Source: Candidatus Omnitrophota bacterium (lineage in GTDB: Bacteria; Omnitrophota; Gorgyraeia; Zapsychrales; Zapsychraceae). From it: a stretch of DNA of 64,000 nucleotides. The notes beneath the pieces were generated by a model that saw nothing but the letters and a program-made list of their open reading frames with translations, ran no database searches and was not told the origin of the DNA. The position numbers and the translations under genes are program-made. Every line of letters begins with the position of its first letter. The first letter of the stretch is position 1. This document shows, one piece after another, positions 9,447 to 30,692 of this stretch. Location: the NCBI GenBank assembly GCA_020429915.1, contig JAGQKV010000006.1, positions 5,458 to 69,457 of the forward strand, read 5' to 3'.

Positions 9447-9477
9447 CCGTGTCCCGGACGCGACTAAAATCGAATTC

Positions 9478-11226: not shown

Positions 11227-11241
11227 GAGAGAGGCGTCTGA

Positions 11242-13017: not shown

Positions 13018-13028
13018 GAGAGCGAAAG

Positions 13029-14818: not shown

Positions 14819-15985
14819 ATGTATCAATCCCAGGAAAAACCGACCCGCCTTAATTATTTCCAGAAAGTCGTCAGCCATCTTACTTATTTTGATTTCGTCT
14901 ACAAAAATCCCTGGGTTGTAGCCCGCCTTATCAAGAATTATTTCCGAATCATCGTCTTGCGGCAGCAGGTTATCCGCATTATCGATATCGGCGTTACCGC
15001 CGCATGCAACGCCAAGTGCGCGCATTGCTGCAGCGACGCCACCGTCGACACGCGCTGCACCACGCAAGGTGCGCCTGAGATGCGTGAACCGCTCGACATT
15101 GAAGAAATCGAAGATATCATCGCTCAAAGCGTGAAGATGGGTGCCGTGATTTTCAATTTCCTCGGTGGCGAACCACTGGTGTACAAAGACATTTACCGCG
15201 CCATCCGTTGCGTCAAGAAGCATCATGCCATCGCCGGGATGTCGACGAATGGATTTCTGCTTTCCGAAAAGGTCGTCGCTCAGTTGAAAGAAGCCGGGCT
15301 TGACTGCATTCAGGTGGACCTCGGCGGGGGACTCAATCCCAAGGAAATCGACGAGATCCGCGGACTCACCGGATGTCTTGACAGGGCGCTGAACGGGATC
15401 CGGCTGCTGAAGGAGGCCAACATCAAGGTCATTATGAGTACGATCATGACCAAGAAGAATGCCGCCAACGGGGACATCTGGAAGATGGTTCAGCTAGCCA
15501 AGGACCTGAACATCAAGATCAACGTCAATTGCTCCTCACGCACCGGCGGGTGGGCCGGCAATGAGGACAGCGAGCTGTCCGAAAAGGAATTTGCGATCTA
15601 CAAGGAAATCATCAAGATGCCGCACACGCGGTGGGCCGGCAGCACGAATTATTTTGCCGAGTTCTGTCCCTGCGGGACCGAAAAGATCATGATCACCACT
15701 TACGGTGAGATTCAGCCCTGCGGGTTGATCCCGCTTTCTTACGGGAATTTCCGCAGCGAGGCGATCAATGATATCTGGACCCGCATGCAGACCCAGAAGA
15801 TCATTTGTGACGGCAAGAAGGAAAAGGCCTGCCGCTCCGCCTGGGATAAGGACATCATCCGGCTGAACACATCCATGTATGAAACGGATAAGCCCAAACC
15901 GTTGCGGGTCGACGACATTCCCCAGGAGCGGTTGAAGGCCACGGAAAAGCCGGCGGATTCGACGGTCAATTCTTCCCAATCGTAG
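14819..15985 (+). CDS. Radical SAM enzyme with C-terminal SPASM/twitch domain
   Basis: 'CNAKCAHC' CX3CX2C radical SAM cluster motif. A second C-terminal Cys cluster 'CPCGTEK..PCG' is typical of SPASM/twitch auxiliary domains. An AGGAGG RBS lies 7 nt upstream. Confidence 0.75.
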   Translation: MYQSQEKPTRLNYFQKVVSHLTYFDFVYKNPWVVARLIKNYFRIIVLRQQVIRIIDIGVTAACNAKCAHCCSDATVDTRCTTQGAPEMREPLDIEEIEDIIAQSVKMGAVIFNFLGGEPLVYKDIYRAIRCVKKHHAIAGMSTNGFLLSEKVVAQLKEAGLDCIQVDLGGGLNPKEIDEIRGLTGCLDRALNGIRLLKEANIKVIMSTIMTKKNAANGDIWKMVQLAKDLNIKINVNCSSRTGGWAGNEDSELSEKEFAIYKEIIKMPHTRWAGSTNYFAEFCPCGTEKIMITTYGEIQPCGLIPLSYGNFRSEAINDIWTRMQTQKIICDGKKEKACRSAWDKDIIRLNTSMYETDKPKPLRVDDIPQERLKATEKPADSTVNSSQS

Positions 15986-16007
15986 TCACGATCCGGAGAC
16001 AAAAGTC

Positions 16008-16052
16008 AATTGCGGCAAGGGTTTGCGATAATCTCGCGCTTGCCGCCCGGGT
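16008..16052 (+). terminator. Stem-loop immediately downstream of the first rSAM gene (possible terminator or attenuator)
   Basis: GCGGCAAG(16008-16015)...CTTGCCGC(16045-16052): an 8-bp perfect inverted repeat with a 29-nt spacer/loop that contains a smaller hairpin. There is no strong T tract. Confidence 0.3.
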
Positions 16053-16105
16053 TTAAGTATTCTATCCTTGTAGCATAGATTTCCGCTCCGGCCGCCGTCC
16101 GATAT

Positions 16106-16136
16106 TTGTAGACAAAGAGGTTAATGGGGATATAAT
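16106..16136 (+). promoter_or_regulatory. Candidate sigma70-like promoter for the second SPASM rSAM gene
   Basis: TTGTAG(16106-16111)-N19-TATAAT(16131-16136) inside a 231-bp AT-rich intergenic region. Confidence 0.3.
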
Positions 16137-16216
16137 ATTACTACTATAAATCAGTAGAAACACGGATACCGGATGCGTGGACAGACGCCCGAACGACCCG
16201 CCTCAAAGGCCATAAG

Positions 16217-17272
16217 ATGATAAATATAAACAACTTATGGAAACACAGAAAATTGCTGCGTAACAATTTTCAGATTGTTCCCAGAGTTGTCCAGGATTAC
16301 TACCGGCTGCTGGTCCTGAAACAGCCGGTCCTGCGCAAAGTGGACATTGCCGTGATTGCCGGGTGCAACGCGAAATGTCCTTTTTGTTTTGCCGCGACCC
16401 TGGAAAATGAGGAGGGCCCGCAACTCAGCCTTCCCGAGATTCAGGGGATCGTCACCGAAGCGGTTAAGCTCGGGGCCATCGCGGTGGAGTTTATCGGCGG
16501 TGAACCGTTGATGTGCCGCCACCTCGCCGACGCGGTCCGCTTTGCCCGCCGCCAGAATGTCCTCACCAGCACCACCACCAACGGCCTGCTGCTTACACAC
16601 AAAAAGATCCATGAGCTCAACGACGCCGGCCTGAATGTCATCCAGATCAGTCTCGACAGCGCCGATCACCGCGAACACGATGCCAGCCGGGGTGTACCCG
16701 GCTGTTACGCCAAGATCATGCAGGCCATTGAATGGATTCGCGAAACCGATATCGAGCTGATGCTCAGCACGGTGGCCACCAATGAAAACCTCAGTAACGA
16801 CGGTGTCATGAAGGTTGTGAAGTTTGCCGAGCATCTCGACGTCCCGATCACCGTCAACCCGGCCTCCAAGGCCGGGGGCTGGAAAGGGAATGCCAACGTC
16901 CTGCTGACCGATGAGAACCGCCGCCGTTTCGAACAGATCGTGCAAACGTCCCACGCGCGCTGGGCCGGCCAGGTGAATTTCCTTAAAGAGGGGTGTCCGT
17001 GCGGTAAAGAGGTTATTTATGTCACGGCTTACGGACATGTGATCCCCTGCGGTTTTATCCAGATTTCTTACGGAAATATCCGGCAGGAACCCCTGACCCA
17101 AATCTGGGACCGGATGCAGGAGCACCGGCTCATGCAGGAAGATAAAAACACCTGTATCGCCGCCTTTGACAAGGCATTCATTAAGGATTACATCGATCCG
17201 CTCGATCGCCGGGAAGATTTGCCGGTTTACATCCACGACCATCCCACATACAAGCAGAAGGTGAACGGATAA
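16217..17272 (+). CDS. Radical SAM enzyme with SPASM/twitch domain (paralog of 14819-15985)
   Basis: 'CNAKCPFC' CX3CX2C motif and C-terminal 'CPCGKE..PCG'. Collinear similarity with the preceding rSAM (e.g. 'VLRKVDIAVIAGCNAKC' vs 'VIRIIDIGVTAACNAKC'; 'HARWAGQVNF' vs 'HTRWAGSTNY'). Confidence 0.75.
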   Translation: MININNLWKHRKLLRNNFQIVPRVVQDYYRLLVLKQPVLRKVDIAVIAGCNAKCPFCFAATLENEEGPQLSLPEIQGIVTEAVKLGAIAVEFIGGEPLMCRHLADAVRFARRQNVLTSTTTNGLLLTHKKIHELNDAGLNVIQISLDSADHREHDASRGVPGCYAKIMQAIEWIRETDIELMLSTVATNENLSNDGVMKVVKFAEHLDVPITVNPASKAGGWKGNANVLLTDENRRRFEQIVQTSHARWAGQVNFLKEGCPCGKEVIYVTAYGHVIPCGFIQISYGNIRQEPLTQIWDRMQEHRLMQEDKNTCIAAFDKAFIKDYIDPLDRREDLPVYIHDHPTYKQKVNG

Positions 17273-17274
17273 CT

Positions 17275-18699
17275 ATGAAAGTACTGCTCGTCAATCCCTG
17301 GTCGCTTAAGAAATTCAATGTGATTGTGATTCCCAACATCAGTCTGGGTTATCTCGCGGCGTCGCTGATGAAGGCGGGGCACGAGGTGGAAATTCTGGAT
17401 TGTGTCCGGGACCGTATCGATCCCGATCAATTTGAAAGCCGGATTCGTGAGAATCCCGACTATGACCTGATCGGATTTTCGTTGTTTACGACCTACGTAG
17501 GAGCGGTCAAGAAATATACCGAGGCGATCAAACGGATCAATCCGCGCATCGCAACCGCGGTGGGCGGTCCGCACGCCGTGCTCGAACCGGTGGAAACTTT
17601 GGAGATCCTCACGGACGTCGACTTCGGATTCCGTGGCGAGGCGGAAATCGGGATATGCCAACTCGTCGAAGTCCTCGGCATGGAGGCCGACCCGTATGGT
17701 CACGACCGGTTGCGCGAGGTGGATAATCTGGTGTGGCGCGACAAGGGCGGTGAAATCGTTTGCAATCCCCGCGTGATGATCGACGATCTGGACAGCCTGC
17801 CGTACCCGCCGTGGGATATTATGAATCCGGGCAAGTATCCGCTGGCCCCGATCGGAGTCTTTTCCAAACGGCGCAAAGTTGCGCCGATCATCGCCACGCG
17901 CGGCTGCCCGTACCCGTGCACTTTTTGCGCGGCCGGAAAGATGTCCGGCAAAAAGATGCGCACCCGTTCGGTGGAAAACATTCTGGATGAAATCAAACTG
18001 CTGGTGGACAAGTTTGGCGTCGAGGAAATCAATATCCTGGATGATAACTTTACGTTGCAACACAAGCTGGTCGAGGATTTTTGCCACGGATTGATCGACA
18101 ACAATATCGATATTACCTGGTCCTGTCCCAACGGGGTCCGGCTCGACACGCTCGACGCGGAGTTATTGAAGTTGATGGAGCGGGCCGGCTGCTATTCCTT
18201 CGGTGTCGGCATCGAGTGGGGCACGTCCAAGATGCTCAAGATCACGCGCAAGTGCGTGACGCTGGCCACCATCCGTGAAAAGGTGGACCTGATCAAGGCC
18301 AACACCAATATCCGGGTGACCGGCTTCTTCATGCTCGGGCATCCGGAAGAAACGATCGAAGACGTGGAGGCTACCATTGACTTTGCCTGCAGTCTGAATA
18401 TCGACCGGGCCAATTTTTTCAACTTTTCGCCGTTTCCGGGGATTGTCGAATACGACAAACTGAAACGGGAAGGGAAGGTCATCAAGAACTGGTATGACTC
18501 GCTTTATATCAACAGCGTCGTGTACACGCCGCGGCAGATGACCCGCCAGCAATTGGTCAATCTGCAGCGCAAGGCCTTTTGGCGGTTCTACACGCGCCCG
18601 CGGATATTCTTTAATATTCTGAAGGAGATTAAATCGTTCAGCCAGTTTATGGTGGTCTTCAAAAAATCGATGCGGTTAGTCTTCGTTCACGGTCAGTAG
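17275..18699 (+). CDS. B12-binding-domain radical SAM enzyme (class B rSAM)
   Basis: N-terminal Rossmann-like cobalamin-binding region ('VLLVNPW...GYLAASL..GHEVEILD'). 'TRGCPYPCTFC' CX3CX2C motif. Confidence 0.75.
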   Translation: MKVLLVNPWSLKKFNVIVIPNISLGYLAASLMKAGHEVEILDCVRDRIDPDQFESRIRENPDYDLIGFSLFTTYVGAVKKYTEAIKRINPRIATAVGGPHAVLEPVETLEILTDVDFGFRGEAEIGICQLVEVLGMEADPYGHDRLREVDNLVWRDKGGEIVCNPRVMIDDLDSLPYPPWDIMNPGKYPLAPIGVFSKRRKVAPIIATRGCPYPCTFCAAGKMSGKKMRTRSVENILDEIKLLVDKFGVEEINILDDNFTLQHKLVEDFCHGLIDNNIDITWSCPNGVRLDTLDAELLKLMERAGCYSFGVGIEWGTSKMLKITRKCVTLATIREKVDLIKANTNIRVTGFFMLGHPEETIEDVEATIDFACSLNIDRANFFNFSPFPGIVEYDKLKREGKVIKNWYDSLYINSVVYTPRQMTRQQLVNLQRKAFWRFYTRPRIFFNILKEIKSFSQFMVVFKKSMRLVFVHGQ

Positions 18700-18703
18700 T
18701 GAG

Positions 18704-20116
18704 GTGCGTACGGTGTCTACGGCGAAAGTATCGTTAATTCGACTCGACCTGGGAAACAGCAAAAATATCAAGCATCCCTACCATTGTTCTCCGCCTTTTT
18801 CTTTAAAATATCTGGAAGCGATCCTGCGGGAGAGCGGCTTTGAGGACGTACGACTCTACGATGCCATGCCGGGCCGTCACCGCAATGAAGATGTGCTTGC
18901 CGAACAATTGACCCGTCGGCCGGACTTTGTCATTTATACGGTGAACGTCACCACCCTCAAGGAATTCCGCGCCTTCAATGCCCGTCTCAAACAGGAGCGC
19001 CCGGTGCTGACGGTGGCTATGGGGTCGATCGATCCGCGGTTCGTTCCGCCGGAGCTGGATATCTATCTGCCCGGAGAGGCCGAGGTGGAGGCCGCACAGC
19101 TTTTGCAGCGCATCGTTGACGGGGAAAGCGACGCCGAGACGGAAATCACCCGTTACGCCAAATACAAACAGGGACCGCAGCCGAATTTTCTCGTCCACAA
19201 TCTGGATGACCTGCCGTTTCCGGTTTACACCCGTGATGAAATCAAGGACTACCGGTTCATTTATCCGGTGCGGATGTCGCGCAAATTGCGCTGGGGTCAT
19301 ATCCTGTCGTCGCGCGGATGCCCGTATAAATGCACCTTTTGCTCGCCGGTGACGCGGGAAAGTTACGGCGCGAAGGCCCGGTTACGCTCGGCCGCCAATG
19401 TAGTCGATGAGATCGAGCGTCTGAAAGAGCAGGGTGTGAACATGATCAGCTTTGACGACGACCTGTTGACCATTACCCGCCGGCATATCACGGAGTTGTG
19501 TGATGAGATGATCCGCCGCGACGTGCAGATGAACTGGCTGGCGCATTCGCGCATCGACAATATCGATTACGAATTGCTGCGCAAAATGAAGGCGGCTGGT
19601 TGCGTGCTGCTGCGTTTCGGCGTCGAGTCCGGATCCGCCCGGATTGTGGCGTCTTTGACCAAATCGTTCAAGAAGATCGACTGGAACGACCAGGCCAAGA
19701 GAATATTCCGTTATGCCAGGGAGCTCGATATCGCTACCCATGCGCTGTTGATTATCGGCAGCCCGACCGAAACCGAGGCTGAGATCCAGGAAACATTTCA
19801 ACTGGTAAAGGAAATCAACCCCGACATCATGCAGATCCACTTCTTCAGTCCGTATCCGGGTTCCGTCAGCTATGAGCAGCTCAAGACCGAGTTGAGCGAA
19901 GATCAGGTGATGAACATGTTTCATTACGAACTTCCGCGGCAGACCATGGGTTCCCTGAATTCGGAGCGTTTAGGGCAAATCCGGTCGGACCTGTACCGGC
20001 GCATCTTTCTTAATCCGCGCTTCTTTTTCAGTCACATGCGCAAGTATTTCAGTTTTTATATGACAAACCTCGATGTCTTCTACCGGCTGTCCAAGGGTCT
20101 GATTTACATTAGATAA
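18704..20116 (+). CDS. B12-binding-domain radical SAM enzyme (paralog of 17275-18699)
   Basis: GTG start. 'SRGCPYKCTFC' motif. Collinear with the preceding gene ('LDDLPFPV', 'AAGCVLLRFGVESGS'). Confidence 0.7.
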   Translation: MRTVSTAKVSLIRLDLGNSKNIKHPYHCSPPFSLKYLEAILRESGFEDVRLYDAMPGRHRNEDVLAEQLTRRPDFVIYTVNVTTLKEFRAFNARLKQERPVLTVAMGSIDPRFVPPELDIYLPGEAEVEAAQLLQRIVDGESDAETEITRYAKYKQGPQPNFLVHNLDDLPFPVYTRDEIKDYRFIYPVRMSRKLRWGHILSSRGCPYKCTFCSPVTRESYGAKARLRSAANVVDEIERLKEQGVNMISFDDDLLTITRRHITELCDEMIRRDVQMNWLAHSRIDNIDYELLRKMKAAGCVLLRFGVESGSARIVASLTKSFKKIDWNDQAKRIFRYARELDIATHALLIIGSPTETEAEIQETFQLVKEINPDIMQIHFFSPYPGSVSYEQLKTELSEDQVMNMFHYELPRQTMGSLNSERLGQIRSDLYRRIFLNPRFFFSHMRKYFSFYMTNLDVFYRLSKGLIYIR

Positions 20117-20120
20117 TTCC

Positions 20121-21389
20121 ATGACCAAGAAGTTACCCCGCGACAAGCGCGGCCCGCTCGTCGGGATTATATTCTTTCTCGTTCTTTTGTTTCTGATCGA
20201 AGCGGCGTCCTATTTGTGTCCGGCCAAACCCGACCGGCTGGAACGGATCCGCGCCGTATTGCGCCAGGACAGCCAGTTGTTCTGGCGCCAGCGCGCGCAT
20301 TTGAATACCGTCTTTGAGGGCGCGGCCGTACGGACCAACCGGTTGGGACTTCGCGACGAGCCGGTGAGCAAGGGCGGAAAGAAGCCGGTACTGCGCATCG
20401 TGACCCTCGGTGCCTCGCCGACATTCGGGTGGGGGGTAGAGCAAAACGATACCTACGCCCAGGTGCTTGAACGGATCCTGCGCGACACCTTAAATACCGA
20501 GCAGGTGGAGGTGATCAACGCCGGACAGATCGGTTTCAGTTCCTATCAGGGGCTGAAGTTTTTCCGGGAGGTGATCCTGCCGTTGAAGCCGAATATGATC
20601 ACCGTCTCGTATGTGATCAACGACGTGGACAAGTACCGGTTTTTCCGCAACCACTCGGCCCCTGACAGCCAGCTGAAGCCGCAGAGCGGATTGCTGGTGG
20701 CCGTGGAGAACGCGCTGGAACACAGCCGGTTTTTTCGTTTATATCGCAAGTTGGTCAACGGGACCAAATCGGCGTCGCAACAATTTTTCGGGGAGCGCGG
20801 CACCGGCGAATACCGGGAGTCACGGCGGGTGTCCCCGGAGGAATATCGCGCGAATATCACGGCACTGATCGATTTGGCACAACAGCACGGTATCGACGTG
20901 GTCCTGGTCAAGATGCCGGTCAATCTGCCGCAGCCGGTGAAGGTCCCGGAAAGCAATGTGATCCGGGCGAAGCAGACCGTGACCGAGGCGATGGTGTGGG
21001 CCGAGCGTGGTTACCGGGAGGAAGCCATCCGTTTACTGCAACAGGCGCTGGCGTACAATCCCAACACGCCCCGGGCGCACTATTATCTCGGGCAGCTCTA
21101 CCAGCGCACGGGCAAACGCAAGCAGGCCCGCAAACATTTTGAACGCACCGTTGTCCTGGAACTGTACGAATGCGCGCGGCTGGCCCTGGAGTACCACCGT
21201 GTGCTGGACGACATTGCCGCGCAGCGTGATGTTCGTCTGGTCGACGTGGTCACGGCCTTTGACGAATACCGCCGCTACGGCGGAGACTACCTGTTTCTGG
21301 ATCCGGAGCATGACACCATTCATCCCAACCGCACGGGTCACGCCGTGATCGGCTGGGCCATTTACGACGAAATCTTCGCGCGGCCGTGA
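20121..21389 (+). CDS. Membrane-anchored SGNH/GDSL-family hydrolase with an inserted TPR module
   Basis: N-terminal TM helix. Block I 'VTLGASPTFG', block III 'VINAGQIG', block V 'DTIHPNRTGH' (DxxHP). TPR-like 'AIRLLQQALAYNPNTPRAHYYLGQLYQRTGKRKQARKHFERT' sits between blocks III and V. Confidence 0.65.
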   Translation: MTKKLPRDKRGPLVGIIFFLVLLFLIEAASYLCPAKPDRLERIRAVLRQDSQLFWRQRAHLNTVFEGAAVRTNRLGLRDEPVSKGGKKPVLRIVTLGASPTFGWGVEQNDTYAQVLERILRDTLNTEQVEVINAGQIGFSSYQGLKFFREVILPLKPNMITVSYVINDVDKYRFFRNHSAPDSQLKPQSGLLVAVENALEHSRFFRLYRKLVNGTKSASQQFFGERGTGEYRESRRVSPEEYRANITALIDLAQQHGIDVVLVKMPVNLPQPVKVPESNVIRAKQTVTEAMVWAERGYREEAIRLLQQALAYNPNTPRAHYYLGQLYQRTGKRKQARKHFERTVVLELYECARLALEYHRVLDDIAAQRDVRLVDVVTAFDEYRRYGGDYLFLDPEHDTIHPNRTGHAVIGWAIYDEIFARP

Positions 21390-21402
21390 GCCTGCGCAAC
21401 CG

Positions 21403-21636
21403 GTGAAGACGATGACAAAGCCGAACGAACAACCCGATCCCCAACGGAAGCCGGAACGGCTCAAGAACAAGAAGATCAACACCAACAAAGAACTGTTGGT
21501 CGAGCTGTTCCAGATGATCAAGGAGCACAAGAAATGGTGGCTGTTGCCGTTCCTCTTAGTTCTGGCCTTTCTCAGTATTTTTGTGAACCTGGCCGGTAAC
21601 TCCTCCATTCTTCCCGCGATATACGCCCTGTTTTAG
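21403..21636 (+). CDS. DUF5989-like small membrane protein
   Basis: C-terminal 'ELLVELFQMIKEHKKWWLLPFLLVLAFLSIFVNLAGNSSILPAIYALF' matches the DUF5989 pattern (..KERKKWWLLPIIL..L.S..APFIYTLF). There is an unusual ~25-aa basic N-terminal extension; the start may be further downstream. Confidence 0.5.
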   Translation: MKTMTKPNEQPDPQRKPERLKNKKINTNKELLVELFQMIKEHKKWWLLPFLLVLAFLSIFVNLAGNSSILPAIYALF

Positions 21637-21686
21637 TATCAATCCGCGCACCGTCCGCCCGGACAGGCCATTCGGAATATTCCGTC

Positions 21687-22439
21687 ATGAACAAAAACCA
21701 TATGAAAATAGCGACCGTCATCCTCATTGTGGGTGCTGTGGCCTATAGTGTGTATGTTTTCCTGCAGGAGAGCGGCCGCGCGCGCATGGAGCAGCATTGG
21801 TCGGGGCAGCGTTTTGCCGCGCGGGATTATTATCCGCTGACGCCCGGGAACAAGTGGACATATCGTATCAGTGGTGATGACGAGCAATCCCGTTTGGACG
21901 TCGAAATCACCCAACGGGTGCAGTGGCAGGGACGCGATGCCGTCCGGGTGACTTTCAACGACGCGGCTTCAAAGATTCTCGGATTCGCCGAGAGCGGTCT
22001 GGTTAAATATCAGGAGATCGACGACGGAGAACAGGAAGTTTATGATCCTCCAGGCAGCATATTGCCCGATTTGACGTTCGGCGAATCCAGGGTGTTTCAT
22101 CCCAAATACGTTATGCAAACGGCGGACGCGGAGGTCGCCACCCGGGCTGCCGCCGAAATGAGTTTTTGGCTGGATACCATCGAAAGCGTCAAGGTGCCGG
22201 CCGGCACTTTCCGGGATGTCCTGAAAGTCGGCTATTACGACCGTTGGGAAGAAGAGGACGGGAGTTTCGATATCAGCCGCGGATATATCTGGTTTGCCAG
22301 GGGCGTCGGGATTGTTAAAATCAAAGGCTCGGCCACCGAAGTCGATCCCGAGAGCGGTCGGCGCGAGACGGAAAAGGAAATGCACGTGCTGGTATCGTAT
22401 CATATCGCCGGCGATGCACGGGAGGGCCGTAGTGAATAA
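21687..22439 (+). CDS. Hypothetical membrane-anchored protein
   Basis: N-terminal TM helix followed by a ~200-aa soluble domain. Codon usage is consistent with neighbouring genes. No motif recognised. Confidence 0.45.
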   Translation: MNKNHMKIATVILIVGAVAYSVYVFLQESGRARMEQHWSGQRFAARDYYPLTPGNKWTYRISGDDEQSRLDVEITQRVQWQGRDAVRVTFNDAASKILGFAESGLVKYQEIDDGEQEVYDPPGSILPDLTFGESRVFHPKYVMQTADAEVATRAAAEMSFWLDTIESVKVPAGTFRDVLKVGYYDRWEEEDGSFDISRGYIWFARGVGIVKIKGSATEVDPESGRRETEKEMHVLVSYHIAGDAREGRSE

Positions 22440-23757
22440 AACAGACGCCCAACGGAATTGGGGATTAGTCGTGGCCGGCATTTTGGCCGCATTTTTGTTG
22501 TTGGAAGCCGGGCTGCGGCTGGCCGGTTTTGTCTTCATGCAAACCCAGCAGGCCAGTAACCGCCGGGCCTTGAACACCGCCGGTGCGGTGCGGGTGTTGT
22601 GTCTGGGGGAATCGACCACCGCGTTGGGCGGCGCGCATGCGTATCCGCAGCTGTTGGAGCAGATTCTCAACCAAAATCCGGACGGCCGCGTGTTTCGGGT
22701 CATCAACAAGGGCGTGCCCGGGATCACCACCGACCACATTCTTGCCGGGCTCGATGACACCTTGAAGAAGTATGAACCGCATGTCGTGGTGGCGATGATG
22801 GGGATCAACGACGAGGACGGGGACGCGTCCTCCTGGGAAGAGCGCCTGCTGCATAAGTCCCGCGTGGTGCGGTTGCTGCAACTGATCGGCCGTCACGCCG
22901 CGCAGTCCCTGCCGTTTACTCACGCTGCACGCGAGAAGAAACTCTTTGACGAATTCATGAACAGCTGGGAGCAGGGGACTTCCGGCGAACCCGGCAAGGC
23001 CGAGTCGCTTTTCCGTCGCCAGCTGCGGGATCATCCCGATGATGTCGATGCTTATCTTGAACTGGCCAACTGGTTGCTTGTGCTCGACAAAGACGACGAG
23101 GCCATGTCCTTACTCGATGAAGCACAACGCAAATTTCCCGACAATGACGACATTCAGCTCGGCAAGGGGATCGCTTACCTGTTCCAGGACAGATGGGATG
23201 ACGCGGCGCGCGAACTTTACAACTACATCCAGCATGTAGGATATAACGATGATGCCTATATGGGCCTCGGCTGGGCCTTCATGCGGCAGGGCAAATACCT
23301 CCAGGCCGAAGAGATCCTGCGGCAAAATCTGGCGTTGAATCCCACGGACGCGGCCTTCGGGGCGTTGATCCTGTGTTACGAAAAGCAGGGTAAAACGGCC
23401 ATGGCAGAGAAGTACGGGCGGTTGGCGGAGGAGCGGCGCGCGCGCCGGCTGCTGCCGGTGACCCAGGACCGGTATCGGGAGCTGTACGCGGAGCTTCACC
23501 GGCGCGGGATCCCGCTGGTGGCTGTCCAGTATCCGCGGCGGGATGTCGGCCTGCTGCAGGCGGTTCTGGGCGAACGGGAGGGAATCGCGTTCGTGGACAA
23601 CAAGGCGAGCTTCGACGCGGCAGTCGCCCGGGACGGCTACGAGACGTATTTTATCAACAATTTCGCCGGGGATTTCGGTCACGGCACGGCGACCGGCAAC
23701 CGGCTGCTGGCCGAGAACGTGGCTAAGGCGGTGCTCGGGCTGGTCACGACGTTTTAA
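22414..23757 (+). CDS. Membrane-anchored SGNH hydrolase with inserted TPR module (paralog)
   Basis: Start set at the ATG at 22414 (the track ORF starts at 22294 and would overlap the previous gene by ~145 nt). One TM helix. 'VLCLGESTTALGG' (block I), 'VINKGVPGITTD' (block III), TPR repeats at aa ~240-370, 'FAGDFGHGTATGNRL' (block V). Confidence 0.65.
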   Translation: MHGRAVVNKTDAQRNWGLVVAGILAAFLLLEAGLRLAGFVFMQTQQASNRRALNTAGAVRVLCLGESTTALGGAHAYPQLLEQILNQNPDGRVFRVINKGVPGITTDHILAGLDDTLKKYEPHVVVAMMGINDEDGDASSWEERLLHKSRVVRLLQLIGRHAAQSLPFTHAAREKKLFDEFMNSWEQGTSGEPGKAESLFRRQLRDHPDDVDAYLELANWLLVLDKDDEAMSLLDEAQRKFPDNDDIQLGKGIAYLFQDRWDDAARELYNYIQHVGYNDDAYMGLGWAFMRQGKYLQAEEILRQNLALNPTDAAFGALILCYEKQGKTAMAEKYGRLAEERRARRLLPVTQDRYRELYAELHRRGIPLVAVQYPRRDVGLLQAVLGEREGIAFVDNKASFDAAVARDGYETYFINNFAGDFGHGTATGNRLLAENVAKAVLGLVTTF

Positions 23758-23811
23758 GTGAAAATATGCTAGAATATAAATACTTATATTATTACCCGGA
23801 CAGGATTCCCC

Positions 23812-25269
23812 ATGACCAAGAGAAAACTCGCGCTCCGCTATAAGCTTCTTATCAGCCTGATCAGCCTGCTTTTTAGTCTGACCGCCCTCGAACTGGGATT
23901 GGCAGCCGTCGGCCGGATTTATTACAGCCCGGACGAGGTCTACCGGGACGATGAATTGGAGGCGACGGGTAACGGTCCGGCCAAGACCCTGGTGGCCGTG
24001 GGCGATTCCTTTACCCACGGCGGTCTGGTCGCCGGGGACGCCACCTACACCCACTTCCTGCGTCAAATCCTGCGTGAGCAACAATACACCGATTACCGCG
24101 TCAAGAATCTTGGGATCTGCGAACTCAACAGCGGCGAGTTGCTCAAACGCATCCCGCGGATTATCGACCGGAACCAGCCCTACGCCATCCTGCTCCTGGT
24201 CGGTGCGACCAACCGTTTTAATCCCTGGGACTACGAGGCCTACGCCAACAAGGACTTTGTCAGCACGCTGAAAAAGAATTTCTTCAATCTGCGCGTGGTG
24301 AAGATGGCGCGTTTTATCGGTCTGGCCCTGACGGCGAACCGCGATATGGACCGCAACGGTTTGCTCAGTCTGATCGGTCCCGGCGACCGCAGCCGCAATA
24401 CACGGCATGACCTGCATCTGGAATATCTCGAGGAACGGCAGGAGGAGGCGGACATAAATTCCCCCGACGAGGTCGCCCGGGTGTGGGCTCTTTACAAGGA
24501 GGGCCGTAAAGCCGAAGCCCTGCACCGGGCCGAAAAACTCTTCACCGGACGCAGCCCGCGGGGACGCGAACTGCTGTTCGCCCTGACCTATTTTTACCTG
24601 AAGAATGACCGGCCCGATAAGGTTCAGGAAATGATCGCCTTGGCCACCAAAAACGACCGGGAGTCCGAGGAGATCCTCAATTTCATGACGTTCTACCGTT
24701 TTGAGCTGGCCCGCTGGCATCGGGAGCATTTGCAATATGACGAAGCCATCGACTGGTATCTTAAGGCCATCGCACTCGATCCGGATGCCGATTATTTTTT
24801 CTTTGAGCTTAACAAGATTTTCGATCTGCAGAGCCGGTATACCTCCAAGATGCTTTACGACAAACTCGCGGCGCTCGCCGACGAAAATCCGGACATCGCG
24901 CTCAGCCGGATGTATCAGAATCATCTCAAGCTCTACCGTGACAAACAAAAGTGGGAAGACGGAATCGGGGACTGGCTGCGGCATGATCTGGACGCCATCG
25001 CTGCCCTCTGTCGGCAGCGCGGGATCAAGCTGATTATCCAAAAGTATCCCGTGTCGTATCCGTTGGCGAATTCGGTGATCGAGGAGATTGCCCGTAAGTA
25101 CGACCTGCCCGTCGTCGATCATTTGACCCGCTTCCGTGACCTGGAACCGAAGAAAGATTATCTTTACGATGATGATCACTGCACGCCTGCCGGGCACCGG
25201 ATCATGGCGGAGAATATATACAAAACGCTGGTCAAGACGCAAACGGTCACTCATGAAAAGACAAATTAG
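23812..25269 (+). CDS. Membrane-anchored SGNH hydrolase with inserted TPR module (paralog)
   Basis: TM helix. 'LVAVGDSFTHGG' (GDSxx block I). TPR-like region ('ALYKEGRKAEALHRAEKLF', 'YDEAIDWYLKAIALDPDADYFF'). C-terminal 'DDDHCTPAGHRIMAENI' (block V DxxH). Confidence 0.65.
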   Translation: MTKRKLALRYKLLISLISLLFSLTALELGLAAVGRIYYSPDEVYRDDELEATGNGPAKTLVAVGDSFTHGGLVAGDATYTHFLRQILREQQYTDYRVKNLGICELNSGELLKRIPRIIDRNQPYAILLLVGATNRFNPWDYEAYANKDFVSTLKKNFFNLRVVKMARFIGLALTANRDMDRNGLLSLIGPGDRSRNTRHDLHLEYLEERQEEADINSPDEVARVWALYKEGRKAEALHRAEKLFTGRSPRGRELLFALTYFYLKNDRPDKVQEMIALATKNDRESEEILNFMTFYRFELARWHREHLQYDEAIDWYLKAIALDPDADYFFFELNKIFDLQSRYTSKMLYDKLAALADENPDIALSRMYQNHLKLYRDKQKWEDGIGDWLRHDLDAIAALCRQRGIKLIIQKYPVSYPLANSVIEEIARKYDLPVVDHLTRFRDLEPKKDYLYDDDHCTPAGHRIMAENIYKTLVKTQTVTHEKTN

Positions 25270-26758
25270 CAATGTCCATCTGATCCGCACCTTTATTCCG
25301 GTCGGCACCGGCGGACCCATTCCGCCGCTGGAGATGCTGTATGTGGCTTCGCAACTGCGCCGGACCTTCGCAGACACATTGCAACTGCGCTTGACGGACA
25401 CCGGTGTGGGAAATTTGAGTGTAGAGGATATCCGGGATGAATGGGGTGGGTTCGCTCCGGACCTGATCATCCTCTACGCGTTGTCGTGGGAAGCCGGTTT
25501 GGTCCACGCGCTCGCCGCGGTTGTCAAAGAGCTTCATCCCGATACGGCGGTCGTTGTCTTCGGGCAATTGGCCACGTTTTCGGGTCAGTACCTGTGCGAG
25601 GATCCGCATATCGATTTTGTGGTGGTCGGCGAGCCGGAGCTGACGGTCGCGGAACTGGTGGGGGCGCTGCGGGAGGAGCACAAAGATCTGAGTAGTATCA
25701 ACGGACTTGCTTACCGTGTGGACGGCGCCGTGACAATGACCGCGCCGCGGGTGTATCCCGACAATATCGATGCGTTTGAAATCATCCCGGAGATGTGGGA
25801 TGCCATCGATATCCGCCGTTACGCGCAGTACGAAAACTGGAACGGGGCGATCAAGGAAGACTTTTATATTCCCATCCTGACGCAGCGTGGATGCCCGTTC
25901 AAGTGCACGTTCTGCCGGGAAACGTACGGCAAGAAATTTCACGCCCGCTCGCCCGAGCACGTGCTGGCCGAAATAAAATTCCTGCACGAACGGTACGGAG
26001 CCAGAGAGTTTCATATTTACGATCCGGTCTTTAACTATGACCAGGACCGCGCCAAGCGGATTTGTCAGCTGATCATTGATGCCGGTTTACCGATCAGTCT
26101 GGCTTTTCCTCACGGGGTCCGTGCCGACATCATGACCGAGGAATTGCTGACCCTGATGCGCCGCGCCGGCACGTACAAATTGGTGTACGGCATTGAGTCG
26201 GCATCGCGGCGGCTGCAGAAGGCCTTCCGTAAAAATCTGAACCTCGAGCAGGTGCGCGAGATCATCCGCGTGACGGCGGACAAGGGTATCATCACCGGCG
26301 GCTATTTCATGCTCGGCCATCTCAGCGAAACCGCCGGGGAGATTGAAGAGACCATTCGCTTTGCCGTCACCTCGGACCTCGACGTGGCCTCGTTTTTCAA
26401 GGCCACCGATTATGATGACGTCAACAAGATCTACGCGTCCAAGTTCAAAGACAACCTCGACGACACGGATATCTTCGCCGGGATTCGCGACATCGCGTAT
26501 TACGCCGTGAACCGGTCGCAGGCCGCGGTGGACGCGGCGGAGTTGAACCGGCTGGTTCTGTCGGCACAGCGCCGGTTTTATTTTCACCCGCGCCGGATAT
26601 GGCGGGGATTCGGTCGGTATCCGAGCAAACGCAAATACATTAAGAATCTGATGACCGCTGCAGGGCTGATCCTGCAAGGGTATATCGTTCAGTCCCTGAC
26701 GGCGGACACAACCGCGAAAAAGCCGGCGGCCGGAGCCGTCGCGCATTCGCATGCCTGA
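25253..26758 (+). CDS. B12-binding-domain radical SAM enzyme
   Basis: Start at the ATG at 25253 (MKRQISNVH..), overlapping the previous stop by 17 nt. 'TQRGCPFKCTFC' CX3CX2C motif with an N-terminal cobalamin-binding-like domain. Confidence 0.7.
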   Translation: MKRQISNVHLIRTFIPVGTGGPIPPLEMLYVASQLRRTFADTLQLRLTDTGVGNLSVEDIRDEWGGFAPDLIILYALSWEAGLVHALAAVVKELHPDTAVVVFGQLATFSGQYLCEDPHIDFVVVGEPELTVAELVGALREEHKDLSSINGLAYRVDGAVTMTAPRVYPDNIDAFEIIPEMWDAIDIRRYAQYENWNGAIKEDFYIPILTQRGCPFKCTFCRETYGKKFHARSPEHVLAEIKFLHERYGAREFHIYDPVFNYDQDRAKRICQLIIDAGLPISLAFPHGVRADIMTEELLTLMRRAGTYKLVYGIESASRRLQKAFRKNLNLEQVREIIRVTADKGIITGGYFMLGHLSETAGEIEETIRFAVTSDLDVASFFKATDYDDVNKIYASKFKDNLDDTDIFAGIRDIAYYAVNRSQAAVDAAELNRLVLSAQRRFYFHPRRIWRGFGRYPSKRKYIKNLMTAAGLILQGYIVQSLTADTTAKKPAAGAVAHSHA

Positions 26759-26760
26759 TC

Positions 26761-26961
26761 ATGAAAACGATACGGAAAATAATGGCTTTTATCTTGTGCG
26801 GGATCGGATTGATTTTGCCGTGGAAGCTGCGCTGCATCTACATCGAGATCCTGGGCTGGATCACCCAGTTTGTTTATTTGTCTTATATCGTCATTCTCAA
26901 ATTTATTCTACAGGAACTGCAAAAGGCCAAGGCCGAACAGGCAAACTATGAAACTCAATGA
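26761..26961 (+). CDS. Small hydrophobic protein (two TM helices)
   Basis: 66-aa ORF starting 3 nt after the upstream stop. Hydrophobic. Overlaps the next start by 14 nt. Confidence 0.3.
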   Translation: MKTIRKIMAFILCGIGLILPWKLRCIYIEILGWITQFVYLSYIVILKFILQELQKAKAEQANYETQ

Positions 26962-27799
26962 GACGGCGACACTATTTTCAGGCGGGACCGACTCGACGCT
27001 GACCGCGGCCTTGATGGCCGAGAAGTTCGACAAGATCCATCTTATCACTTATGACCGATTCGCGTTTTCGTCGGTCATGAATCCGATGGTGAACGTTAAG
27101 AAGCTGCGCGATAAGTACGGCGAGGACAAGTTCGATTTCCACGTCATCAAGGTCGAGAAGCTGACCCGTTTCGTTTTCTACGAACGTTACTTGCACAACA
27201 TCCGTAAACACGGCTTCTTCTTATTGACGATATGCGGATTGTGCAAACTGGCGATGCACGTGCGTACCGTGATCTTTTGCCTGGAAAACGGGATCCCCAA
27301 TGTCTGCGACGGCGCCAATCAGGGCATGCACCTGTTCCCGGCCCAGATGGCCAGCGTGATCAAGGAGTACGGCGATATGTACACGCGCTACGGGATCACC
27401 TATTCCAATCCCGTATTTAAATATGAAGGGCCGCAAGATCTGGATTTTACGGACCGCCTGCGTCTGGAGCGCGTGCTGTCCCGGGACAAGGAGCCTGCAA
27501 CCGCGACGGCCGCACGCACCGCCAACACCACCGGCCGCAAACTGTATGAACTGGGCCTGATGCCGTCGGAAAACGTGAAGGGCACCGAACTCGACCGGAG
27601 GATGCAGCCGCGCTGTTTTCAATTTATCCTCTTTAATGTCTTCGTCCACTGGTTTTATCTGGCGGACCATACGTATGAAGAATACCAGGACGCGACGGTC
27701 CGGTTTTATCAGGATAAAATTCGGGCCATGGTGAAGCATTTGGATGACTATGCCGCCGCCGGCGCTGACAGCCGGTTGGCGAGAATGATCGAAAGGTGA
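26948..27799 (+). CDS. PP-loop superfamily ATP pyrophosphatase (putative sulfurtransferase/adenylyltransferase)
   Basis: Start at the ATG at 26948. 'LFSGGTDST' is the SGGxDS PP-loop motif. Conserved Cys pairs ('CGLCKLAMH','FCLENGIPNVCDGAN'). Confidence 0.65.
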   Translation: MKLNETATLFSGGTDSTLTAALMAEKFDKIHLITYDRFAFSSVMNPMVNVKKLRDKYGEDKFDFHVIKVEKLTRFVFYERYLHNIRKHGFFLLTICGLCKLAMHVRTVIFCLENGIPNVCDGANQGMHLFPAQMASVIKEYGDMYTRYGITYSNPVFKYEGPQDLDFTDRLRLERVLSRDKEPATATAARTANTTGRKLYELGLMPSENVKGTELDRRMQPRCFQFILFNVFVHWFYLADHTYEEYQDATVRFYQDKIRAMVKHLDDYAAAGADSRLARMIER

Positions 27800-28172: not shown

Positions 28173-29390
28173 ATGAGTTTGGATATCAACGCAATCCGTA
28201 ACGACTTTCCCGCGCTGCAACGCCTCATCAAAGGCAAACCGCCGGTTTATTTCGACAATGCCTGCATGACCCTGCGGCCGCAGACGGTTATCGACGCGAT
28301 GACGCACTATTACCGGGAACACCCCAGCTGTCATCGCCGGTCGATCCACAAATTCGGCAAGGAAACCACCGCCGCGTATGATAAAGCCAAGAAAACGGTG
28401 CGCGCGTATATCAATGCCAAGGACGCCGATGAGATCGTCTTTACCAAAAACGCCACCGCCGGGATCAACATTGTCGCGCACGGTTTGAACTTTCAGCCCG
28501 GGGATGTCCTTCTGACGACGACGCTGGAACACAACTCCAATTTCTTACCGTGGCAATTCGTGGCCAAAAAGGCGGGGGCGAATCTCGCGGCGGTGCCGTT
28601 GACGCCGGAACTGACCTTTGATCTGGACGCGTATCGCAAGGCCCTTACCGATGAGGTCAAGGTCGTGGCCGTTCCGCATAAGAGTCACATCACAGGGTAT
28701 ACCTATCCGGTCAAAGAGATCATTCAACTGGCCCACGCGCGGGGCGCGGTGGTGCTGATCGACGCGGCGCAAAGCGCGGCCCAGGACGACATCGACGTCC
28801 AGGAGCTGGATGCGGACTTCCTGGTGTTTTCTTTTCACAAGATGCTCGGTCCCAGCGGCACAGGCTGCCTGTACGGAAAGAAGAGTTATCTGGACAACCT
28901 GACGCCGGTGTTTATCGGCGGGGAGACCGTAGACGATGTCAGTCACAACGCCTATGCGTTAACCAAGGTCCCGGAACGGTTCGAGGCGGGGCTGCAGGAT
29001 TACGCCGGGGCAATGGGCGTGACCGCGGCAGTGGAATATTTGCAGCGTGTCGGTCGTCCTGCCGTCCGCGCGCATATCGGGAAATTGAACGCCTTGGTCA
29101 CCCAAGGCATCTCGGAATTGCCCAAGGTCCGCATCCTCGGTCCGGCCGCGGCGGCACAACGCGGCGGGATCGTTAATTTCCAGATCGACGGCATGGATGC
29201 GGGTGAGTTGTCGATCATTCTCGATGAAACCGACAATATCATGACCCGCAGCGGGGTGCATTGCTGCCACGCGGGATACAAACGGCACAATCTGAGCCCG
29301 AGTTTACGGGTATCGTTTTATATGTATAATACAGAACAAGAAGCGGAGCTTTTTGTCGACCGGCTGAAGAAGATCGTCCGTTTTTTCTAA
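28173..29390 (+). CDS. Cysteine desulfurase, class V aminotransferase (SufS/CsdA-like)
   Basis: 'FSFHKMLGPSGTGCLYG' is the PLP-lysine region; 'TRSGVHCCHAGY' matches the SufS active-site Cys loop (RxGxHCA). Confidence 0.8.
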   Translation: MSLDINAIRNDFPALQRLIKGKPPVYFDNACMTLRPQTVIDAMTHYYREHPSCHRRSIHKFGKETTAAYDKAKKTVRAYINAKDADEIVFTKNATAGINIVAHGLNFQPGDVLLTTTLEHNSNFLPWQFVAKKAGANLAAVPLTPELTFDLDAYRKALTDEVKVVAVPHKSHITGYTYPVKEIIQLAHARGAVVLIDAAQSAAQDDIDVQELDADFLVFSFHKMLGPSGTGCLYGKKSYLDNLTPVFIGGETVDDVSHNAYALTKVPERFEAGLQDYAGAMGVTAAVEYLQRVGRPAVRAHIGKLNALVTQGISELPKVRILGPAAAAQRGGIVNFQIDGMDAGELSIILDETDNIMTRSGVHCCHAGYKRHNLSPSLRVSFYMYNTEQEAELFVDRLKKIVRFF

Positions 29391-29393
29391 AAC

Positions 29394-30692
29394 ATGAATA
29401 TACTGCTGATCAAACCGTACTGGCCTTATCCCTACGGCAAAGGGGAGCACACCTATAACCGTATATGGCCGCCGTTGTCGCTGGCGAATTGCGCTGCGAT
29501 TCTGGAACAGCGGGGGCATACGGTGGCCATCCTCGACGCGCACGCGCGGCGTATCCGCCCCCGATATATCGCGCGGCACATCGGCGGCTACGACAAGATA
29601 TTCCTGACATCATCTTCCTTGGACCGCTGGCAGTGTCCCAACGTCAATATGGTCCCCTTCTACGAAACCACCTCCGCGCTACGCGAGGCAGGCGCCGGGT
29701 TTTACGTGATGGGTTATCACGGGACTGTCGACGCGCAGAATGTCTTGGAACAGAGCGGGGCGCGCGCCGTCATCCGCGGCGGGCCCGAATTCATCGTAGC
29801 CGATATTTGCGCCGGCACCCCGCTGGCACAGATCAACGGCGTGAGCTATTTTGAAGGCGAAACCTTCCGCGCCAATCCCGATTACGGCAATTTCGAACTG
29901 ACCGAGCTGCCGGTACCGGCGTTTCATCTGCTCGATATCGACAAATATTTCTACGAGATTCTGGGCAAACGGTTCATGCTGTTCGAACTGGGCCGGGGCT
30001 GCAACTTCGGCTGCAAGTTTTGCAACCGCATCATGTACGCGCCCAAGCTGCGGGTGAAGACCAGCGAGCAGATGTGCGAAGAGGTGCGGACGGCCGTGGA
30101 GGAGCACGGCGTGAAGACGGCCTATTTCATGGACCTGGAATTTCTGCACTACAAAAATCATGTCAGCCGGCTGTGCGACTTCTTGATTGAAAAGAACTAT
30201 AACTTCAAATGGTGCTGCCAGACGCGGGCCGATTCGGTTGACCCGGACATTCTCGCGAAAATGAAGCAGGCCGGTTGTCAACTCATCCACGTCGGGGTGG
30301 AGAGCGGAACGAAAAAATACCTCGACCTCACCAACAAGTCCATTTCCCCTGAGCAGATTTTGGAGGGGGTCTCCATGTGTCGGGCCGCCGGGATCAAGAC
30401 GCTGGCCTTTTATATGTTCGGGTTAAAAGAGGAATCGGAAGACGACCGCCGGGAGACGTTTCGCTTTGCCAAAAAGCTGAACACCAACTTTGTCTCCTTC
30501 CACAAGGTCTATCCGTACCTGAAGAGCAATGTGTACATGCCGGATATCAATTTCAACAAATACATCGATAATTACATCCGCCGGGTGTATATCCAGTACT
30601 ACCTCCGTCCGGAATACATCTGGAGTTCGGATATGCTGACCCTGCTGCGCAGTTTCCGGGTGTTCATGGGGCGTTTACTGACTCTTATATGA
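29394..30692 (+). CDS. B12-binding-domain radical SAM enzyme
   Basis: 'GRGCNFGCKFC' CX3CX2C motif. N-terminal Rossmann-like domain ('ILLIKPYW..LSLANCAAILEQRGHTVAILD'). Confidence 0.7.
   Translation: MNILLIKPYWPYPYGKGEHTYNRIWPPLSLANCAAILEQRGHTVAILDAHARRIRPRYIARHIGGYDKIFLTSSSLDRWQCPNVNMVPFYETTSALREAGAGFYVMGYHGTVDAQNVLEQSGARAVIRGGPEFIVADICAGTPLAQINGVSYFEGETFRANPDYGNFELTELPVPAFHLLDIDKYFYEILGKRFMLFELGRGCNFGCKFCNRIMYAPKLRVKTSEQMCEEVRTAVEEHGVKTAYFMDLEFLHYKNHVSRLCDFLIEKNYNFKWCCQTRADSVDPDILAKMKQAGCQLIHVGVESGTKKYLDLTNKSISPEQILEGVSMCRAAGIKTLAFYMFGLKEESEDDRRETFRFAKKLNTNFVSFHKVYPYLKSNVYMPDINFNKYIDNYIRRVYIQYYLRPEYIWSSDMLTLLRSFRVFMGRLLTLI

Follow-up and report, generated by a model that had tools for sequence, protein, structure and literature searches.

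What are the proteins of this locus in which a domain of the SGNH hydrolase type is interrupted by tetratricopeptide repeats (TPRs), and at which step of which pathway might they act? Four genes for such proteins, here called P1 to P4, lie in the window, the stretch of 64,000 nucleotides from a Candidatus Omnitrophota contig (JAGQKV010000006.1) that was analyzed; P1, P2 and P3 share positions 20121-25269 with a DUF5989 gene and a DUF3108-like gene, both absent from the first-pass annotation of this DNA. Sequence comparison securely identified the four products as carrying SGNH-fold serine hydrolase or acyltransferase domains, each interrupted by a TPR array or, in P3, by TPR-like repeats. As to their function, we hold with moderate confidence that they act in the periplasm as (de)acylases that finish a lipid-linked envelope glycoconjugate; the TPRs would be a built-in arm for binding a substrate or partner.

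The Pfam model Lipase_GDSL_2 spans the N-terminal half of all four SGNH modules (E values of 7e-13, 6e-10, 3.5e-13 and 3e-6), and P3 additionally aligns with the C-terminal end of the Lipase_GDSL model. An alignment of P1-P4 showed that G-x-S of block I (GAS, GES, GDS and GES in P1 to P4), N-x-G of block II and D-x-x-H of block V (DTIH, DFGH, DDDH and DFGH) are invariant, the last through residues D398 and H401. Blocks I and V, the latter with its His, had been placed likewise in the first-pass annotation; what it had called block III, a G-Q/x-xD motif exemplified by NAGQIG, is actually block II, and the true block III reads VIND, GIND, GATN and GVND in P1 to P4, respectively. The same residues are kept among homologues. 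In the P2 family, GES occurs in 118 of 120 members and xFGH in 120 of 120; the Asp of DxxH is kept in 100, with N, E, S or C in the remaining 20, and the His in all. The P1 family has G[AG]S in 114 of 120 members and DxxH in 117 of 120, and GDS is found in 91 of 98 members of the P3 family. In block III, which contributes to the oxyanion hole, the P2 family shows an invariant G130 and conservation of 90% or more at N132 and D133, and the P1 family has invariant N167 and D170. Overall, the Ser and His are near-invariant across several hundred homologues at 30-40% identity.

Blocks I, II, III and V, together with a three-layer α/β/α fold with five parallel strands, place the modules in the SGNH superfamily. 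Scores against narrower models stayed below their cutoffs: 20.2 and 15.5 bits against 270 for TesA/lysophospholipase L1 (NF007819), and 21.9 against 325 and 19.1 against 300 bits for the NCBIfam models of the Leptospira SGNH esterases LA_2490/LA_2486. In structure comparisons, PatB and carbohydrate esterases (CE3, Axe) were among the closest SGNH structures; CgnD (PDB 8a2n) was the top match, but marginally, with a score barely above those of generic GDSL esterases.

The repeats lie between the true blocks III and V in all four modules, in agreement with the earlier proposal that the TPR module is internal to the SGNH domain. In P1, P2 and P4 they are not a mere linker, as Pfam matches exceed the gathering scores (TPR_2 at 41.9 bits, E 6.8e-11, in P1; TPR_19 at 62.7 bits in P2 and at 47.7 bits, E 2e-12, in P4), although P1 has only two TPRs and P3 remains below threshold. 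In hhalign, the P3 repeat region could be matched column by column to the TPR array of P2-family proteins.

AlphaFold models of P2 and P1, built on family alignments of 68 and 70 sequences, were confident and reached a pLDDT of 92.5 and pTM of 0.89 for P1 and a pLDDT of 87 and pTM of 0.80 for P2. In the P2 model, a long N-terminal helix comprising the transmembrane (TM) segment and a stalk is followed by SGNH strands 59-65, 94-98 and 124-128, a poorly predicted linker (~134-190) and ten well-predicted helices within 170-345, after which come the canonical helix, strand 4 (368-371), strand 5 (391-394) and block V. In the P1 model, block III leads into three short helices (190-223), a regular helix, strand 4 (259-264), the PVNLP loop and then the TPR helices (277-295, 299-312, 317-329 and 333-369), which run into strand 5. 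The P2 insert matched MamA-type five-repeat TPRs with TM-scores of 0.73-0.78 (Foldseek), and KLC TPRs were also matched. Residues 283-347 of the P1 family profile matched consensus TPR proteins (E down to 4e-56), and residues 78-168 and 352-420 matched SGNH esterases. No solved chain with both folds was present among the structure-search matches, and an internal TPR array is described in none of the SGNH structures or literature found, so the first-pass view of this arrangement as unusual stands.

The insertion site is not the same in all copies: in P2, P3 and P4 the array begins directly after block III, a few residues past the oxyanion Asn, and in P1 it begins after β4 and the PVNLP loop. 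In the SGNH fold, the parallel strands carry the catalytic residues at their C-terminal ends, so the two insertion points should be on the catalytic face; judging from fold topology, the array would leave and re-enter the fold at these strand ends, beside the active site. Within the inserts of the P2 family, and likewise of the P1 family, only the structural consensus positions of the TPR are conserved. Whereas conservation of the SGNH halves is strong, neither the surface of the TPRs nor their number is conserved. In the P2 family, 221-573 amino acids lie between block III and β4; insert lengths across this family gave no clean signal of a 34-residue periodicity, because a variable linker precedes the repeats. 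Near-invariant Ser and His residues combined with variable inserts fit an active enzyme with a variable binding arm.

The first-pass annotation had read the four copies as an expansion to four paralogs in the cluster. Sequence comparison instead makes them old paralogues, members of three old families that span at least seven phyla and hold hundreds to thousands of members: P1 is only ~20-22% identical to the other three modules in the four-way alignment, and the SGNH/TPR modules of P2 and P4 share 36% identity (BLASTP E 2e-69). The P2/P4 family, with the motifs "GESTT ... VQYP ... F(A/G)GDFGHCT.KGN.LLAENIA", gave more than 120 matches below 1e-61 at 30-37% identity and ~95% coverage, ranging from 401 to 776 amino acids and coming from Omnitrophota, Elusimicrobia, Patescibacteria and the PVC group. 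The P1 family, recognized by "GASPTFGWGV ... SYVINDVDKYRF ... PVNLP ... DTIHPN..GH" (also GAS...VINDVDKYRF...DTIHPN), is tightly constrained in length (median, 424 amino acids) and has loci in Omnitrophota, Elusimicrobiota, Planctomycetota, Myxococcota, Bdellovibrionota, Thermodesulfobacteriota and Gottesmanbacteria. The P3 family, with "GDSFT ... DDDHCT..GH", is represented by 109 cluster representatives at E<=1e-30 and by 704 at E<=1e-10.

The P3 and P2 families are homologous over their full length, repeats included (hhalign E 2e-62, 444 columns), which points to a common ancestor that already bore the insertion. Between the P1 and P2 profiles, the match (E 1.6e-25) is confined to blocks I-III and the helix that comes next. 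Because the TPR pair of P1 sits at a different site, it suggests a second, independent insertion event. The proteins are ordinary members of the SGNH and TPR superfamilies, common in metagenome-assembled genomes, where they are usually annotated merely as "TPR protein" or "GDSL esterase" and in some cases carry the JGI name 'lysophospholipase L1-like esterase'; P2 and P4 themselves are 100% identical to NCBI entries called "tetratricopeptide repeat protein" and "glycosyltransferase". Elusimicrobiota, Omnitrophota, Halobacteriovorax and one Patescibacteria-labelled contig (loci L011, L035, L043/L045 and L050) also have three to five SGNH paralogues in tandem, many with TPRs, so that multiplicity per locus is a general trait of the families and not a peculiarity of the window. 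A 347-amino-acid SGNH protein of L050 was considered as a TPR-less ancestral form and set aside as uninformative, since it aligns only over blocks I-III.

The SGNH/TPR domains are predicted from sequence to be tethered to the inner membrane by one helix with its N terminus inside, and to face the periplasm. Every family has one hydrophobic 19-mer near the N terminus, with a mean Kyte-Doolittle value of 2.4-2.5, and an excess of Lys and Arg on its N-terminal side was counted in 55/67, 49/67 and 36/37 members by family. At the outer end of the helix a Glu is conserved (E27, invariant in the P1-P4 alignment), with an ExxLR motif in 64/67 and 34/37 members. The helices were located at residues 11-32 in P1, 16-41 in P2, which has the ExxLR motif, and 12-34 in P3; the N-terminal anchor once proposed for every copy is thus found in these three, whereas that of P4 is internal (residues 248-266), after a domain of glycosyltransferase (GT) family 2. 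The order in P4 of a cytoplasmic-type GT2 domain, one TM helix and the SGNH module places the module outside the cytoplasm and is independent evidence of topology. A BamD-like gene in the window indicates a diderm cell, for which "outside" means the periplasm.

Table 1. Positions of the SGNH/TPR genes, their motifs and other features, in window coordinates (aa, amino acids; ORF, open reading frame; SAM, S-adenosylmethionine; PLP, pyridoxal phosphate)
Feature	Position	Strand	Size or residues	Remarks
P1, SGNH/TPR gene	20121-21389	+	422 aa	ORF list
P1 block I, GAS	20409-20417	+
P1 block II, NAG	20517-20525	+
P1 block III, VIND	20613-20624	+
P1 PVNLP loop	20916-20930	+		conserved
P1 TPR insert	20949-21155	+	aa 277-345	two TPR motifs between β4 and β5; Pfam, profile, AlphaFold
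P1 block V, DTIH	21312-21323	+
DUF5989 small membrane protein	21403-21636	+	77 aa	PF19451, E 5.4e-15, above cutoff
DUF3108-like secreted or anchored protein	21687-22439	+	250 aa	weak Pfam match, E 1.1e-3
P2, SGNH/TPR gene	22414-23757	+	447 aa	ATG 22414 adopted, in agreement with database protein; mechanical ORF opens at TTG 22294
P2 block I, GES	22606-22614	+
P2 block II, NKG	22705-22713	+
P2 block III, GIND	22801-22812	+
P2 TPR array	22921-23448	+	aa 170-345	ten helices, ~five TPRs; between block III and helix before β4
P2 β4, VQYP	23524-23535	+
P2 block V, DFGH	23671-23682	+
P3, SGNH/TPR gene	23812-25269	+	485 aa	ORF list
P3 block I, GDS	24001-24009	+
P3 block II, NLG	24106-24114	+
P3 block III, GATN	24202-24213	+
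P3 divergent TPR-like helical repeats	24409-24951	+	~aa 200-380	insertion point as in P2
P3 β4, QKYP	25039-25050	+
P3 block V, DDDH	25168-25179	+
P4 gene	30689-32722	+	677 aa	SGNH/TPR module is the C-terminal two-thirds
P4 N-terminal GT2 domain	30689-31378	+	aa 1-230	PF00535, E 5e-30; should be cytoplasmic
P4 TM helix and SGNH/TPR module	31430-32722	+		paralogous to P2
P4 block I, GES	31577-31585	+
P4 block II, NEG	31679-31687	+
P4 block III, GVND	31775-31786	+
P4 TPR region	~31901-32428	+		TPR_19 (Pfam)
P4 VQYP	32489-32500	+
P4 block V, DFGH	32636-32647	+
B12-binding radical SAM	25253-26758	+		Pfam/NCBIfam
~60-aa membrane protein	26761-26961	+	66-aa ORF	motif LPWxLR...LGWITQ; no Pfam family
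YcfA-like PP-loop ATPase	26948-27799	+		SGGTDS motif; Pfam/NCBIfam; PDB match
Class-V PLP enzyme	28173-29390	+		cysteine-desulfurase-like; Pfam/NCBIfam
Other radical-SAM genes	14819-20116, 29394-30692	+		with the B12-binding gene above, seven in ~16 kb
Membrane protein	3720-5339		539 aa	no family assignment
Three tandem membrane proteins	9478-11226, 11242-13017, 13029-14804	+	~590 aa	no Pfam/NCBIfam family; third weakly PMT_2-like (E 5e-5)
Two adjacent PilZ-domain genes	34173-34508, 34501-34851	+		immediately downstream of the GT9 gene of the cluster
BamD-like gene	61273-62235
Antisense ORF	23110-25470	-	786 aa	opposite P2/P3

Genes of the P2/P4 type do have a link to glycosyltransferases. The fourth copy is indeed fused to a GT2 domain, as had been noted: in P4 this domain precedes the SGNH/TPR module. 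It resembles the polyprenyl-phosphate sugar synthases PgfS, ArnC and DPM1 (NCBIfam PgfS, E 9e-21; ArnC-type, E 1e-19), but scores below the equivalog cutoffs (70.8 against 529 bits for ArnC, NF007986; 74.4 against 500 for PgfS), so that its assignment holds at the generic GT2 level only (PF00535). The fusion was found only in P0241, the protein of this organism, on 45 contigs, and in its 79% relative P0242, with more distant P4 orthologues being stand-alone proteins of 441 amino acids; it is recent and lineage-specific. In five other loci (L003, L004, L043, L045 and L050) a GT2 gene lies directly 5′ of the SGNH gene, often with overlapping stop and start codons. The pair in L003, at 18316-20506 of that locus, consists of separate adjacent genes, and in the Patescibacteria-labelled contig L050 the order (9042-13343) is GT2, SGNH-TPR and PMT_2, with TPR Pfam matches recorded for the GT2-adjacent SGNH protein.

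The wider cluster in the window (268-33920) is dominated by glycan enzymes: GT-C enzymes of the YfhO-like and PMT_2 types (C-terminal TPRs are present in one), a DegT aminotransferase, an SDR, a GT9 and the GT2 fusion. SGNH enzymes have a major part in editing the surface glycans of bacteria, through the O-acetylation and de-acetylation of peptidoglycan, capsules, alginate and O-antigens, and TPR proteins are usual scaffolds of surface-glycan pathways. We propose that the cytoplasmic DegT, SDR, radical-SAM and PP-loop/PLP enzymes would build and tailor a sugar, which the GT2 would load onto polyprenyl phosphate; after flipping, GT-C enzymes (PMT_2, YfhO-like) would transfer it, and the SGNH-TPR proteins would carry out a periplasmic (de)acylation, for example by taking off an acyl group that had served as transient protection, the part that ArnD plays in the Arn pathway. 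The SGNH core would thereby remove or transfer an acyl group on a membrane-proximal glycoconjugate, with a polyprenyl-phosphate-linked sugar, an LPS-like glycolipid (LPS, lipopolysaccharide) or a glycoprotein as candidate substrates, and the TPR arm would hold an acceptor polymer, a peptide or a partner enzyme beside the active site. The coupling of the SGNH module to a GT2 suggests, by analogy, such an ArnD-like unmasking step.

O-Acetyltransferases of the PatB, OatA and OafA type require MBOAT or AT3, present as a membrane partner or as a fused domain. None of the scanned ORFs of the window, which also encodes four large membrane proteins outside any family, matched a Pfam model of either kind; this weakens a reading as an OatA/PatB-style O-acetyltransferase. 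Because no such acyl translocase was detected, hydrolysis, or transacylation from a lipid donor, is somewhat favored over O-acetyl transfer.

The lack of an acetyl translocase would also suit enzymes directed at lipids, that is, inner-membrane-anchored periplasmic lipases, lysophospholipases, lipid A/LPS deacylases or phospholipid-dependent acyltransferases that use the TPRs for complex formation. The anchor with its conserved juxtamembrane Glu/Arg motif, the GT9 (LPS-core type) genes that adjoin the cassette described below, and the JGI name given to some members are consistent with this alternative. The TesA/lysophospholipase L1 scores are negligible, however, the closest structures are short-chain carbohydrate and acetyl esterases, and the fusion or adjacency to GT2 argues for a sugar-centered substrate; we therefore regard a lipid-directed role as unlikely, though still deserving of consideration.

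P1 and P3 belong to a conserved cassette that contains an SGNH protein of the P3 type, DUF5989, a B12-radical SAM, the ~60-amino-acid protein, a YcfA-like PP-loop protein, often a PLP C-S lyase/desulfurase, an SGNH protein of the P1 type and sometimes a GT9. We counted partners within 7 kb in 46 genome loci with a P1 relative, many of them on truncated contigs. The PP-loop gene was present in 24 of the 46, a P3-like SGNH gene and a B12-radical SAM of the type encoded beside P3 in 22 each, and the PLP enzyme in 8. The ~60-amino-acid membrane protein stood directly upstream of the PP-loop gene in 23 of the 46; over the range from Omnitrophota to Myxococcota, no fewer than 23 loci have a relative in this place (phmmer E 1e-8 to 1e-34). 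DUF5989, counted anywhere in the retrieved locus and without the 7-kb filter, was present in ~30; its homologues come from several phyla and usually lie directly upstream of the B12-radical-SAM gene. A Myxococcota chromosome shows a clean operon in the order SGNH (P3-like), DUF5989, B12-radical SAM, 57-amino-acid protein, PP-loop, SGNH (P1-like) and GT9. A census of the genes flanking the cassette was heterogeneous and gave no further universal partner. The best solved relative of the PP-loop protein is YcfA (PDB 9kq6; E 8e-9), a thioamide-forming enzyme of 6-thioguanine biosynthesis whose partner is a PLP C-S lyase, and the PP-loop and PLP pair resembles this YcfA-YcfC system.

Three observations weigh against periplasmic glycoconjugate finishing as a function of all four proteins. 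The P1 and P3 genes are tied more tightly to the radical-SAM/PP-loop/PLP cassette than to any glycosyltransferase; in some genomes the cassette has no glycosyltransferase nearby, which makes a non-glycan substrate possible; and the P3 repeats fall just under the Pfam gathering scores (26.1 against 26.8 bits for TPR_11 and 24.8 against 27 for TPR_2).

The coupling of P1 and P3 across phyla to the B12-radical SAM, the YcfA-like PP-loop protein and the class-V PLP enzyme would be explained if both were periplasmic hydrolases processing a peptide or small molecule that thioamide-forming PP-loop/PLP enzymes would make together with radical-SAM and B12-radical-SAM enzymes. In that case the peptide would be held by the TPR arm, a common role of TPRs, and an ester or amide would be cut by the SGNH core, comparable to the action of CgnD in the maturation of crocagin; the cluster contains SPASM and other radical-SAM genes. 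A search for precursor-peptide-like ORFs near the radical-SAM genes, however, yielded only conserved hydrophobic small proteins, namely DUF5989 and the ~60-amino-acid protein, which are membrane proteins conserved end to end. The structural match to CgnD scarcely exceeds that to generic esterases, genes of the P2/P4 type go together with those for GT2 and GT-C, and the wider cluster is rich in glycan enzymes, all of which makes the processing of a peptide or small molecule improbable.

The cassette might also be a self-contained, cross-phyla system of envelope modification that installs a C-methylated, sulfur-substituted group on a lipid-linked sugar or glycolipid, with P1 and P3 as its periplasmic arm. 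The group could be a thioamide or thiocarbonyl, such as an N-thioacyl amino sugar, which the SGNH-TPR proteins would transfer or unmask outside the membrane. To our knowledge, such chemistry is not known in bacterial envelopes, and we consider this proposal doubtful. That the SGNH parts are decayed pseudo-enzyme scaffolds, or the chimeras products of misassembly or frameshift, would accord with the replaced Asp of DxxH in the P2 family, the weak TPR signal of P3 and the confinement of the GT2 fusion to two close lineages, but is highly improbable given the near-invariant Ser and His, the recurrence of the same colinear architecture on independent contigs from many phyla and the number of contigs on which the fusion protein is recorded.

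Several further observations concern the surroundings of these genes. The DUF3108-like gene is immediately 5′ of P2, and this pairing is kept in the related Omnitrophota loci L001, L003 and L004. As P2 and P3 on the plus strand have hundreds of homologues, the antisense ORF opposite them is most likely a shadow of the GC-rich coding region. Rfam and tRNA scans of the window returned no matches. Among the seven radical-SAM proteins, three or four have a B12-binding domain and one has a SPASM domain; none in the window reaches an NCBIfam equivalog cutoff, the best partial likeness being to BchE, HpnJ, AprD4 and P-methyltransferase types. The four membrane proteins without a family have syntenic counterparts in related Omnitrophota loci and are probably GT-C-type enzymes that have diverged. 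The TPRs of the GT-C enzyme showed merely generic TPR likeness to those of P2, with no specific similarity, and a common origin of the two was rejected on that ground. The first-pass suggestions that the SGNH proteins edit acyl groups serially and that their TPRs dock onto the glycosyltransferases are best regarded as speculative. The PilZ pair hints, by analogy, at control by cyclic di-GMP as in synthase-dependent exopolysaccharide systems.

Returning to the SGNH-TPR proteins, a TPR array built into the catalytic face at two different points suggests independent events and offers a natural model for grafting a binding arm onto an esterase. The three families sit in the poorly studied Omnitrophota, Elusimicrobiota, Patescibacteria, Planctomycetota, Myxococcota and Bdellovibrionota, and defining them would better annotate many metagenome-assembled genomes. 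They also point to the conserved radical-SAM/thioamidation cassette. In practice, the consequences will be limited until a substrate is found. Our literature searches, on SGNH proteins with TPRs, DUF5989 and Omnitrophota clusters, found no description of the architecture, the cassette or DUF5989.

Known systems share parts of this arrangement. The cluster, like the Arn pathway (ArnB/ArnC/ArnD/ArnT) and GT2/flippase/GT-C systems, has a DegT enzyme, a polyprenyl-phosphate-type GT2 and a PMT_2 GT-C; the GT2 of P4 is nevertheless not an ArnC equivalog, and ArnD, unlike the SGNH modules, comes from another fold family and works at the cytoplasmic face. PatB, the OatA C-terminal domain, OafA/OafB and Ape1, all periplasmic SGNH enzymes that act on surface glycans as O-acetyltransferases or esterases, differ from P1-P4 in having no TPRs. 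CgnD, the SGNH hydrolase of the biosynthesis of crocagin, a RiPP, or peptide made by the ribosome and modified after translation (PDB 8a2n; PMC10070186), is soluble and cytoplasmic, has no TPR and shares 18% identity.

TviD, the Vi-antigen O-acetyltransferase of Salmonella Typhi, was the sole characterized SGNH-plus-TPR protein found in the literature. Like P1-P4, it combines an SGNH-like acyl-transfer domain and TPRs in one polypeptide, and its C-terminal TPRs mediate membrane association and bind the glycosyltransferase TviE (PMC8760489). Those TPRs are, however, an appendage after a complete catalytic domain, whereas those of P1-P4 are internal; TviD is a cytoplasmic, peripheral protein with an atypical Cys/His pair and without recognizable blocks II and III, whereas P1-P4 have a Ser and are predicted to be periplasmic. 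There is no detectable sequence relationship between them, and TviD has been reported to have no homologues outside Vi systems (PMC8760489). In an envelope polysaccharide pathway, AlgK, a TPR protein, and AlgX, which is SGNH-like, form a periplasmic complex (PMC9734138), so that in this case too a polymer-modifying enzyme of the SGNH-like kind operates in the periplasm while bound to a TPR array. In AlgK-AlgX, and in pairs of the PelB-PelA and PgaA-PgaB type, the two are separate proteins and the TPR partner is outer-membrane-linked and porin-coupled, whereas P1-P4 are single inner-membrane-anchored chains; a synthase or porin set was not found here. By analogy, the SGNH-TPR proteins would in effect be the AlgK (TPR)-AlgX (SGNH) or TviD arrangement in a single chain.

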